This document shows positions 11,776 to 13,600 of a DNA stretch of 64,000 nucleotides, piece after piece. The stretch lies in NCBI GenBank assembly GCA_016649995.1, contig JAENWJ010000003.1, positions 349 to 64,348 on the forward strand. Direction: 5' to 3'. Origin of the DNA: Peptostreptococcaceae bacterium (lineage in GTDB: Bacteria > Bacillota > Clostridia > Peptostreptococcales > BM714). Position numbers and translations under genes: made by a program. The notes below the pieces were generated by a model that ran no database searches, was not told the DNA's origin, and worked only from the letters and a program-made list of their open reading frames with translations. The number at the start of each line of letters is the position of its first letter. The first letter of the stretch is position 1.

Positions 11776-13486
11776 ATTTTACGAGGAATGGCTTGCTGCA
11801 AAAGAAATAGATGAAGATACAAAATTGGAGTTGAAAGGTATTGCAGGCGACGCTGAAGAGATAGAGGACAGGTTCTATAAGGACCTGGAATTCGGGACCG
11901 GAGGAATGCGAGGCATTCGCGGGGCCGGCCGGAACAGAATAAACAAATACAATATAAGAAAGGTTACCCAGGGACTGGCTTCGTATCTCGATAAAAATGT
12001 GGACGGAGCGGCGGAGAAGGGTGTTGCAATTGCCTATGACAGCCGTATAAAGTCAGATGAATTTGCATGGGAGGCGTCAGAGGTTCTTGCCGGAAACGGC
12101 ATAAGGGTTTATCTTTACGAGGGAATAAGATCCACTCCCCAGCTTTCATTTACAGTGAAGAGGTTGGGTTGTGCGGGGGGTATTGTCCTCACCGCCAGTC
12201 ATAACCCGCCGGAGTATAACGGGTACAAGGTTTACGGGGAAAACGGGGGACAGATAGTCCCCAAGATAAGTGAGCCTCTTATTGCTGAGGTTAAAAGGAT
12301 TGAGGGCTTCAAGGGGATTTTGAGAATGAATCGCGAAGAGGCTCTAAAAAAGGGAATGATAAAGCTTATAGGCAGCGAAATGGACGAGGAATATTACGAA
12401 TCGGTTTTAAGTTTGTCGACTGTGAATGCTGAGAACCGCGAGGCTGTAAAGGGTTTAAAAATAGTATATACGCCGCTTCACGGGGTTGGCTTAGAGCCTG
12501 TTACAGAGGTGCTTTCACGGGATGGATTCCAGCATGTGACTGTGGTGCCTGAACAGGAAAAGCCCGATGGAACCTTTCCGACGGTGAAAAAGCCGAATCC
12601 TGAGGAGCCGGAGGCGCTTAAAATGGCGCTTGATCTGGCAGAGAAAAACGGAGCGGACCTGGTAATAGCTACCGATCCGGATTCGGACAGGGTTGGACTT
12701 GCGGCAAGAAACAGCCAAGGAAGGCTTGAATCGCTTTTGGGAAACCAGGTGGGACCGCTTCTTATAGATTATATTCTTTCGCATAAAAAGCTAATGAAAG
12801 GTGATTTTATCGTCAAGACGGTTGTGACATCGGACATGGGAGCAGCTGTTGCAAGGCATTACGGCGTGGACAGTTACGAGACTCTGACAGGCTTCAAGTG
12901 GATTTGCGACAAGGCAATGGAGCTTGAGAGAGAGGGCGGAAAGCGCTTTGTTTTCGGATACGAGGAAAGCATAGGGTACCTTGCAGGAGACTTTACCAAG
13001 GACAAGGATGCAGTTATTTCTGCAATGATAGCGTCTGAGATGGCAGCCTTTTTCAAGGCCAATGGCATGACTCTGCATGATGCACTTAGGGCATTGTGGG
13101 AAAGGCACGGCTTCTACAAGGACCACCTGATTTCGCTTTGGCTTGAGGGACGCGACGGCAAGGAACGCATAGGGAGAATAATGAAAAGCTTCAGGAATAA
13201 TTCGCCAAGGATAATCGGCGGAGCTGCTGTAACTGAAATAGTTGATTTCAATTCATCGACTAAAACCTATGTGGACAGAAAGGAATCGGAAATTTTGAGG
13301 TTCCATAAATCCAATGTTTTGAAATTTAAATTTGGAGATAGTTGCTGGTTTGCCATAAGGCCCAGCGGAACCGAACCGAAGATTAAGATATATTTCTCGG
13401 TCATGGATAGGGATGAGGCGAAGGCTTCTAAAAAGATGGAGGATATGATAGGTGAAGTCAGCAAATTGATTGAAGAGGTAAAATAG
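11762..13486 (+). CDS. pgcA: Phosphoglucomutase/phosphomannomutase, PgcA-like
   Basis: Active-site loop TASHNPPEYNGYKVY, ATDPDSDRVG metal loop, GYEESIGY. I chose the ATG at 11762 (MENNKFYEEW) because SD GGGAGGAAG lies upstream of it. The track start at 11729 has no SD. Confidence 0.85.
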   Translation: MENNKFYEEWLAAKEIDEDTKLELKGIAGDAEEIEDRFYKDLEFGTGGMRGIRGAGRNRINKYNIRKVTQGLASYLDKNVDGAAEKGVAIAYDSRIKSDEFAWEASEVLAGNGIRVYLYEGIRSTPQLSFTVKRLGCAGGIVLTASHNPPEYNGYKVYGENGGQIVPKISEPLIAEVKRIEGFKGILRMNREEALKKGMIKLIGSEMDEEYYESVLSLSTVNAENREAVKGLKIVYTPLHGVGLEPVTEVLSRDGFQHVTVVPEQEKPDGTFPTVKKPNPEEPEALKMALDLAEKNGADLVIATDPDSDRVGLAARNSQGRLESLLGNQVGPLLIDYILSHKKLMKGDFIVKTVVTSDMGAAVARHYGVDSYETLTGFKWICDKAMELEREGGKRFVFGYEESIGYLAGDFTKDKDAVISAMIASEMAAFFKANGMTLHDALRALWERHGFYKDHLISLWLEGRDGKERIGRIMKSFRNNSPRIIGGAAVTEIVDFNSSTKTYVDRKESEILRFHKSNVLKFKFGDSCWFAIRPSGTEPKIKIYFSVMDRDEAKASKKMEDMIGEVSKLIEEVK

Positions 13487-13600
13487 TGGGAAGTAGAAAG
13501 TAGAAAGTAGAAAGTAGAAAGTAGAAAGTAGAAAGTAGAAAGTAGAAAGTAGAACGAAAAAGACTAAAGATAAAAAACTAAAAAGAGTAAATCCATAAAG
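13486..13600 (+). repeat. Composite heptanucleotide tandem array (GTGGGAA, then GTAGAAA x8 plus GTAGAAC, then degenerate A-rich heptads)
   Basis: Ten contiguous 7-nt units occupy 13486-13555, starting inside the pgcA stop codon. They are followed by GAAAAAG ACTAAAG ATAAAAA ACTAAAA. Confidence 0.95.

Follow-up and report, generated by a model that had tools for sequence, protein, structure and literature searches.

Heptanucleotide tandem arrays behind stop codons in an uncultured Clostridia lineage: long simple sequence repeats, probably shaped by slippage and recombination

We analyzed a 64,000-nt stretch of chromosomal DNA from a Peptostreptococcaceae genome (assembly GCA_016649995.1, contig JAENWJ010000003.1, positions 349 to 64,348; hereafter "the window"), in which tandem arrays of 7-nt units stand at the ends of genes. 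A reading made from the letters alone (the sequence-only reading) had noticed such arrays at six loci, and we found tandem 7-nt repeats at 6/6 of them with Tandem Repeats Finder (TRF) and by inspecting the sequence. The genes that flank the arrays are functionally unrelated: phosphoglucomutase (PGM), a 376-amino-acid (aa) protein of unknown function, glucose-6-phosphate isomerase (PGI), DUF1893, DUF2922, YvrJ, and a flagellar rod/hook protein. The arrays and the structures beside them are listed here in window coordinates, with the G-rich blocks called G-type and the A-rich blocks A-type.

13485..13554, plus strand: G-type block of array 1, AGTGGGA followed by nine AGTAGAA units, overlapping the TAG stop (13484-13486) of the PGM gene, which has Pfam PGM domains (TRF: 13491-13554, AAGTAGA, 9.1 copies, 100% matches)
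13555..13607, plus strand: A-rich degenerate tail of array 1, reaching the next gene (ATG at 13608 or 13629, with GGGGAGG as its ribosome-binding site, RBS)
14764..14822, plus strand: array 2, three GTGGGCA units and GCTGGCA, then an A-rich AAAAGC-like tail of period 6, beginning 5 nt past the TAA stop at 14757-14759 (TRF: 14764-14794, 4.4 copies, 87%; second row 14795-14818)
18863..18923, plus strand: G-type block of array 3, AGTAGAA, AGTTGGA and AGTGGAA units with a 31-nt higher-order repeat (TRF 73%)
18920..18993, plus strand: A-type block of array 3, AAAGATA, AAACGAT and AAAGAAAAAGATT (TRF: 18920-18991, period 7, 10.7 copies, 85%; also period 13)
18989..19040, plus strand: weak hairpin with UUUUAGCUUUUGUAUUU behind it, located after array 3 and before the inverted block; relative L124 has kept this sequence
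19054..19090, minus strand: inverted G-type block, on the minus strand CAGTTTG, CAGATGG, CAGTTGG, CAGTTTG and CAGT, then A-rich AAATACAAAAGC (TRF: ACTGCAA, 5.3 copies, 83%)
19087..19116, both strands: strong bidirectional intrinsic terminator between convergent genes, found by the terminator scan (fold z -4.9)
27032..27105, plus strand: array 4, GGCAGTA in 6.7 copies, then the A-rich tail GAAAAAGATAAAAGCAGTAAAAGAAACA, beginning 3 nt past the TAG stop (27026-27028) of the DUF2922 gene (Pfam) (TRF: 27032-27078, 97%)
27106..27140, plus strand: terminator-like hairpin after array 4, 15 pairs with a U-rich 3' arm (fold z -2.95), kept in relatives L367 and L369
27330..27491, plus strand: array 5, a composite that begins 20 nt past the TAG stop (27308-27310) of the YvrJ gene (Pfam)
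27330-27352 and 27351-27390, plus strand: sub-blocks 1 and 2 of array 5, G-type and then A-type with three copies of AGAAAAAGATAA
27396-27435, 27436-27462 and 27463-27491, plus strand: sub-blocks 3 to 5 of array 5, G-type (GGCAGTG/T in 5.7 copies), A-type, and a G-type remnant (TRF matches in rows 27330-27352 and 27396-27435: 87-90%)
27487..27519, plus strand: weak AU-rich hairpin and then UUUUGG after array 5, with no strong GC stem; missed by the consensus terminator scan
50262..50345, plus strand: array 6, GGGAAGTGGAAAG, then 4.9 exact copies of AAAGATT, then a degenerate purine-rich tail, beginning 2 nt past the TAA stop at 50257-50259 (TRF: 50271-50304, AAAGATT, 4.9 copies, 100%)
50394..50427, plus strand: GC-rich hairpin that lacks a U tract, located after array 6 and before the RBS of flbD (fold z -4.5); no terminator was called there

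Across the arrays, copy numbers from TRF range from 3.3 to 10.7 and matches from 73 to 100%. The units had been described as exact, which holds for arrays 1, 4, and 6 only; the remaining arrays match at 73-90%, and A-rich portions are often degenerate or have a period of 6, 12, or 13. The heptanucleotide period itself is far beyond chance. A lag-7 scan of the window found 7 regions (385 nt in total), whereas 300 block shuffles gave 0.07 period-7 regions on average and 2 at most. The same type of scan of the window at periods 4, 5, 8, and 10 gave zero regions.

The sequence-only reading had also raised the possibility that the arrays are an assembly artefact. We compared the window with three independent assemblies of short reads from the same project, whose strain is essentially identical (99.96-100%). 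(Numbers such as L123 are our handles for the contigs and loci that we compared.) Array 2 is reproduced identically in one of these (contig L123), and array starts are present in all three. The short-read contigs L001, L002, and L123 terminate within arrays 1, 3, and 4, as short-read contigs do at repeats, and the copy numbers of these three arrays are those of the window assembly only. As array 2 is reproduced and the array starts are present in independent assemblies, the presence of the arrays is not an artefact of a single assembly. Relatives from other samples bear arrays at the same sites as well. Together with the shuffles, this effectively refutes the view that the arrays are an artefact or a chance pattern, to which we assign next to no probability.

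The arrays have a consistent position. Relative to the stop codon, the first unit begins at -1, +5, +3, +20, and +2 nt in arrays 1, 2, 4, 5, and 6. The claim that they start 0-20 nt past the stop is therefore right for arrays 2, 4, 5, and 6 (+2 to +20), but array 1 begins at -1 and array 3 begins 40 nt upstream of its stop. At array 3, the DUF1893/TM1506 open reading frame (ORF; 18441-18905) runs on into the array, which encodes its last ~14 codons and its TAG stop (18903-18905) and gives the protein the C-terminal extension KTVESWKVERKNSGK. This is the sole coding overlap, and the arrays are otherwise all intergenic. Array 6 follows a FlgE/G-type rod/hook gene (Pfam) within a flagellar operon, upstream of flbD. 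Across the loci of this lineage, the first purine-rich array lies about -15 to +20 nt from the stop of a gene on the same strand.

The arrays also have a consistent orientation. At every array, the purine-rich and C-poor strand is the mRNA-sense strand (sense-strand composition 51% A, 29% G, 12% T, and 8% C). The sequence-only reading had placed all of the array sequence on plus-strand genes, which is not correct: the block at 19054-19090 is inverted and adjoins the convergent NAGPA gene (19119-21920, minus strand), and it has the same G-then-A order on the strand of that gene. In the relatives, too, the sense orientation holds after minus-strand genes (L140, L223, L129). The order of a G-type run followed by A-rich units, which had been described as a shared grammar, does recur across the lineage, although the A-rich units are often degenerate. 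Since the arrays lie on the sense strand between a stop codon and a hairpin, a terminator, or the next RBS, their anatomy suggests that they would be transcribed as 3' untranslated region (3'UTR) or intercistronic RNA, in agreement with the earlier proposal. A promoter scan gave no sigma-70-like match within the arrays.

Comparison with relatives shows that arrays persist at the same gene ends while their sequence turns over. Synteny is conserved around PGM homologues of 89, 80, and 71% identity, and the orthologous gaps behind them bear heptad arrays with other units and other lengths. In the PGM gap, the window has 9 AGTAGAA units and L126 a 300-nt composite, while L124 has no array; between the 376-aa gene and the PGI gene, the array sequence amounts to 34 nt in the window versus ~640 nt in L126. 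At the ends of the DUF2922 and YvrJ genes, arrays stand directly past the stop in relatives whose sigma factor is 82, 67, and 65% identical. DUF1893 proteins are 154-155 aa long where an array intrudes versus 142-143 aa where there is none, the orthologues ending 11-12 residues earlier; an intruding array can thus supply both a stop codon and a C-terminal extension.

Turnover is visible even among nearly identical strains: in L126, L127, and L128 (99.9% identical), the sole structural difference is a ~150-nt replacement within the PGM array. This, together with the comparison between species, backs the earlier suggestion that the arrays are hypermutable microsatellites. Furthermore, 95 nt of the PGM array of L126 match the array of the adjacent gap at 99% identity, which points to exchange of sequence between arrays. 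Composite blocks contain higher-order repeats of 28, 45, and 79 nt, and the units used across the lineage fit the frame [C/A]AG+N4 (CAGATGT, CAGCTTG, CAGTGGG, AAGTGGA, and AAGATAA). In Caminicella sporogenes, the nearest cultured relative by PGM, the one 21.7-kb locus that we examined has zero period-7 arrays, which supports their restriction to this lineage.

As RNA, the arrays are predicted to be unstructured. Pure array blocks have a minimum free energy (MFE) of 0 to -2 kcal/mol with z from -0.1 to +1.5; the tail of array 1, for instance, has an MFE of -0.7 kcal/mol (z +1.2), the A-type block of array 3 is at 0 kcal/mol (z +1.5), and array 6 is at -2 kcal/mol. We also considered whether array 3 pairs over a distance with the inverted block, and we rejected this (z only -1.9, ensemble frequency 0.0004). 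The arrays are not a known RNA family: at the gathering threshold, Rfam 15 gave no match to them in the whole window (array 6 was searched at this threshold only), and the region of arrays 1-5 (13000-28500) gave none at E <= 1.

A single-stranded RNA with [C/A]AG every 7 nt could be a platform in the 3'UTR or between cistrons for a multivalent RNA-binding protein (CsrA, Hfq, S1, a KH-domain protein, or a cold-shock protein). We consider it unlikely that the arrays are such a platform and that a protein bound there adjusts mRNA stability, termination, or the translation of downstream genes. In favour of the idea, species with 65-89% protein identity retain arrays at the same stop codons, strictly in the sense orientation even after minus-strand genes; the predicted folds and the frame common to the lineage's vocabulary would also suit a bound protein, the window encodes both CsrA and FliW, and similar proposals have been published for the TAACTGA repeats that we discuss below (PMC4679880). 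But orthologous sites differ in their unit sequences, array length ranges from 0 to ~640 nt, near-identical strains swap array content, and the flanking genes have no function in common. Units that turn over so freely between orthologous sites speak against a reader that is sequence-specific. A CsrA sponge in particular does not fit, as most unit types lack the CsrA motif GGA, which is found only in AGTGGAA units and is absent from the AGTAGAA, GGCAGTA, and AAAGATA arrays.

Hairpins stand behind 4/6 arrays (3, 4, 5, and 6). The sequence-only reading had put terminators at 27111, 27494, and 19086. Two of these correspond to the hairpins at 27106-27140 and 19087-19116, but the one at 27494 is weak and has no strong GC stem. 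A role as an accessory to termination is one alternative. The A-rich tract upstream of a hairpin might give antisense transcripts a U tract and so make the terminator bidirectional, and a C-poor spacer might prevent the terminating ribosome from reaching the hairpin and leave the sense transcript without a site for Rho to load; we regard both of these ideas as improbable. They draw on the A-type blocks that lie directly 5' of the hairpins at 27106, 27487, and 18989/19087, on the recurrence in relatives of the order G-type, A-type, hairpin, and on the C/U-rich composition of the reverse complement, which is rut-like and U-tract-like. Against them, arrays 1 and 2 continue up to the next gene without a terminator behind them, the hairpin after array 6 has no U tract and lies inside an operon, the PGM array is wholly missing in L124, and an A tract would need nothing like the length or the variability of these arrays.

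The sequence-only reading held that no known class of feature explains the arrays. This did not survive comparison with the literature, as heptanucleotide long simple sequence repeats (SSRs) have been described and their position rule has been published (PMC4692102, PMC4679880). The arrays belong to this class, in a new Clostridia host, and are not a class of their own. As in other long SSRs, head-to-tail 7-nt copies occur beyond chance, they are biased towards non-coding sequence, and the loci vary among close relatives (four species). In many genomes, heptamers outnumber all other long SSRs, and polymerase slippage on a contact of ~7 nt has been proposed as the cause (PMC4679880). The closest description is of GGGAATC and GGGGA(C/T)T repeats in Xanthomonas and Nostoc, which are biased to intergenic regions with the G-rich strand as the coding strand, 0-50 bp past a stop codon, with overlaps of the stop included (PMC4692102). 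These repeats flank the same genes in related species while varying in length and sequence; they are transcribed, they occur in inverted copies, and their function is not known (PMC4692102). The window's arrays resemble them (PMC4692102) in having 7-nt head-to-tail units, an intergenic location, a G-rich coding strand near the stop, and inverted copies. By the stop-proximal rule for the G-rich strand (0-50 bp; Rehm 2015), five arrays are at -1 to +20 nt and array 3 overlaps its stop. Unlike those heptamers, the units in the window are mostly not competent to form G-quadruplexes (G4) and show no preference for four units, and the arrays add a lineage-specific order of G-type block, A-rich block, and hairpin. 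The hosts differ as well, a moderate-GC Clostridia metagenome-assembled genome (MAG) as opposed to a high-GC proteobacterium or a cyanobacterium. A literature search for newer mechanistic work on such heptamer repeats found none.

Might the arrays act through non-B structures, that is, as G4-forming or R-loop-forming repeats on the non-template strand that modulate transcription or replication? R-loops form readily where a purine-rich RNA lies on a C-rich template, and the GGGCAGT and GGCAGTN units give G runs at a 7-nt spacing. Such a role has been proposed for GGGNATC repeats, and related heptamers have been shown to form G4 (PMC4692102). In contrast, the longest arrays in the window (AGTAGAA with nine units, AAAGATA, and AAAGATT) have no G runs, and with 3.3-10.7 copies there is no preference for four units. 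The arrays cannot be assigned to the G4 subclass: AGTAGAA, AGTGGAA, AAAGATA, and AAAGATT lack GGG, the GTGGGCA array has three GGG tracts, and there is no mode at four copies. We think it quite improbable that non-B structures explain the arrays, and an identity as G4 elements is rejected, as most units have no G runs.

We also compared other families of heptanucleotide repeats. The short tandemly repeated repetitive (STRR) sequences were defined in heterocystous cyanobacteria, where Mazel and colleagues reportedly described the units CCCCAGT, TTGGTCA, and CAACAGT in 1990. Like the window's arrays, STRR sequences (a class cited in PMC4692102) are tandem heptanucleotides dispersed between genes, in composite arrays of related units, and they have the CAGT core in common with GGCAGTN. 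At Microcoleus loci matched by our scan (L033), GGCAGTT is joined to GTCAACA (the CAACAGT register) in one array. Yet the taxon and the set of units are different, and the AAAGATA and AAAGATT units of the window have no STRR counterpart; with a Clostridia MAG as host and only the CAGT core in common, we did not assign the arrays to the STRR class. TAACTGA repeats are found in marine Beggiatoaceae, cyanobacteria, and Bacteroidetes with a sporadic distribution, and the roles suggested for them are speculative (MacGregor 2015, PMC4679880). They too are intergenic direct repeats of a heptamer with a sporadic phylogeny and stops in three frames, and a site for an RNA-binding protein has been proposed but is unproven. 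In contrast to the window's arrays, which are longer and composite and stand at stops, they are short (2-6 copies) and lie just upstream of start codons, overlapping the RBS.

The survey of long SSRs with 5-11 nt units by Mrazek et al. (2007), as relayed in passages of PMC4679880 and PMC4692102, found heptamers to be the most abundant and the genomes rich in them to be phylogenetically scattered. In those passages, long units are mainly a feature of large, high-GC genomes, whereas the host of the window is a Clostridia MAG of ~43% GC. Contingency SSRs, which in excerpts from two papers (PMC12721329, PMC8262952) include heptameric repeats upstream of the Haemophilus hmw genes, are likewise hypervariable tandem repeats whose copy number shifts by slippage. 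As those excerpts describe them, they lie in the promoter, 5'UTR, or 5' coding region of surface or virulence genes and switch expression, whereas the window's arrays are 3' of housekeeping and flagellar genes. The arrays are not phase-variation loci, as they are 3' of the ORFs and the gain or loss of 7 nt leaves the frame of the upstream gene intact (the short tail of DUF1893 excepted). Two exclusions made by the sequence-only reading stand. CRISPR arrays have repeats of ~24-48 nt with unique spacers, while these units are 7 nt long, abut one another, and have no spacers; and repetitive extragenic palindromic (REP) sequences or the mosaic elements that contain them (BIMEs) are palindromes, while the arrays fold at 0 to -2 kcal/mol (z >= 0) and only the separate hairpins downstream are structured.

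Beyond the lineage, four-unit arrays of GGCAGTD and of AGTRGAA each occur at at least 120 loci in genomes and metagenomes of many phyla, with GC contents of 0.29-0.66; the loci listed are often inverted pairs. In viral contigs, we found 51 four-unit arrays of GGCAGTD and 11 of AGTRGAA, compared to 14, 14, 3, and 21 for composition-matched permuted heptamers. Because the permuted controls also form arrays, and GGCAGTD is only ~3.6-fold above two of them, we rejected a special cross-phylum family of heptamers; the wide recurrence is due mostly to the readiness with which heptamers in general form arrays. The G-type-then-A-rich order is not a general property either, as outside this lineage the A content downstream of arrays equals that upstream. 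The order is specific to this lineage. As a separate observation, in many unrelated bacteria (L025, L038, L046, L141, L145, L175, L204, L233, and others) a heptamer array is followed 10-60 nt on by its own reverse complement; the resulting long, imperfect inverted arrays might lie at convergent gene ends or form large hairpins.

We propose, with moderate confidence, that the arrays are heptanucleotide long-SSR or STRR-like microsatellites that are driven by slippage and recombination, are tolerated in 3' untranslated RNA, and have proliferated in one uncultured lineage of Clostridia. Slipped-strand mispairing would add and remove units, and a mutated unit that is then amplified would give rise to composite blocks and higher-order repeats. 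Arrays at different loci would trade sequence by recombination or gene conversion, which would spread a common vocabulary; the shared units would be explained largely by this exchange and by the general tendency of heptamers to form arrays. Position and orientation would reflect a filter of tolerance rather than a sequence-specific function. The 5' edge would be set by the ORF, and because units with TAG or TAA stop all three frames, an array could replace the native stop. A purine-rich, C-poor sense strand would avoid Rho-loading sites as well as pairing with the many other transcripts that bear arrays. The 3' edge would halt before a hairpin or an RBS. The net effect would be an unstructured 3'UTR or intercistronic spacer of variable length.

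Several results weigh against this explanation. First, an array persists exactly at the stop codons of the same genes down to ~65% protein identity, despite the complete turnover of units; this fits a self-perpetuating microsatellite, and it fits selection for having an array there equally well. Second, the ordered module of G-type block, A-type block, and hairpin recurs across the lineage, which simple slippage does not predict. Third, the orientation rule is not fully separable from a replication-strand bias within the window, whose plus strand is purine-rich almost throughout (GC skew +0.2 to +0.3). Fourth, in a pan-bacterial test against long ORFs, these units showed no preference for the sense strand in other phyla (23 vs 16 and 17 vs 19), so we rejected a pan-bacterial rule of orientation; the test is crude, and its first version was confounded as units with TAG terminate any incoming ORF.

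Because neither the persistence at the same stops nor the lineage-wide order is explained by simple slippage, the functional readings stay alive. One further idea is that the arrays are a maintained 3'-end module (G-type heptads, A-rich heptads, and hairpin) that is nucleated where the ribosome leaves the mRNA. In one version, RNA polymerase that is uncoupled from the ribosome and a purine-rich non-template strand would lead to R-loops, and hence to polar slippage right past stop codons; in another, there would be selection for an unstructured spacer of tunable length or for a protein platform. What keeps this idea alive is that arrays persist at the same stops at 65-89% protein identity while their sequence turns over completely. 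We give it a small chance of being correct, and we continue to favour microsatellites that are tolerated in 3' untranslated RNA.

To our knowledge, twenty-five years of description of heptanucleotide SSRs have yielded no function. With this lineage, the class gains a Firmicute member whose stop-codon and sense-strand rule is clean, along with an ordered composite grammar, direct evidence of exchange between arrays, and strain-level swaps. The arrays would serve as strain-typing markers for this uncultured group. They also have practical consequences for genome analysis: they break short-read assemblies, they can lengthen or truncate genuine C-termini, and they yield spurious ORF calls on their complementary strand, which is free of stop codons. 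In the window, such spurious ORFs of 104-135 aa are at 26735-27142, 27178-27504, and 27218-27532 (all on the minus strand). In relative L126, two ORFs (77 and 57 aa) at 12848-13291 were called as genes within an array.

Other repeats occur in the window. A dispersed intergenic family at 22740-23554 has two 247-nt copies (22740-22986 and 23119-23365) of 90% identity and a 71-nt sub-repeat that is present three times, and it has no Rfam match. Copies related to this family adjoin arrays in the relatives L124, L126, and L365. The motif GATGYYGYDYAATYCGAAG occurs in 4 copies in the window, compared to 0.09 expected; one of these is directly behind array 2 (14833-14851). The region from 27520 to 28430 is AT-rich and has no ORF of at least 45 aa in its ~900 nt. 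Within it, at 27904-27936, a 9-nt tandem repeat (CTACTGCAG, 2.8-3.7 copies) lies in a possible hydrophobic ORF of 35 aa on the minus strand (27834-27941).

Near the start of the window, a DDE transposase gene (62-1378) is followed by four co-directional genes, encoding proteins of 342 aa, 538 aa, 233 aa (DUF6063), and 1465 aa (without Pfam domains); the whole block spans 62-9177 and is missing from the syntenic relatives L124 and L126. A REase-ARP nuclease gene (9427-10239) is next to this block, which may be a defence or mobile island.

We also identified two riboswitches. An S-adenosylmethionine (SAM, or S-box) riboswitch at 24970-25069 (minus strand, 81 bits) is upstream of the gene for S-adenosylmethionine synthetase (23667-24872, minus strand). 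A cyclic di-GMP-I riboswitch at 41513-41599 (plus strand, 65 bits) lies in the flagellar cluster, just upstream of a gene for a 532-aa protein (41701-43299). Finally, a FliW-like gene (34800-35246) and the CsrA gene (35250-35498) are immediately 5' of the flagellin gene (35648-36826), which is the usual arrangement of these genes in Firmicutes.

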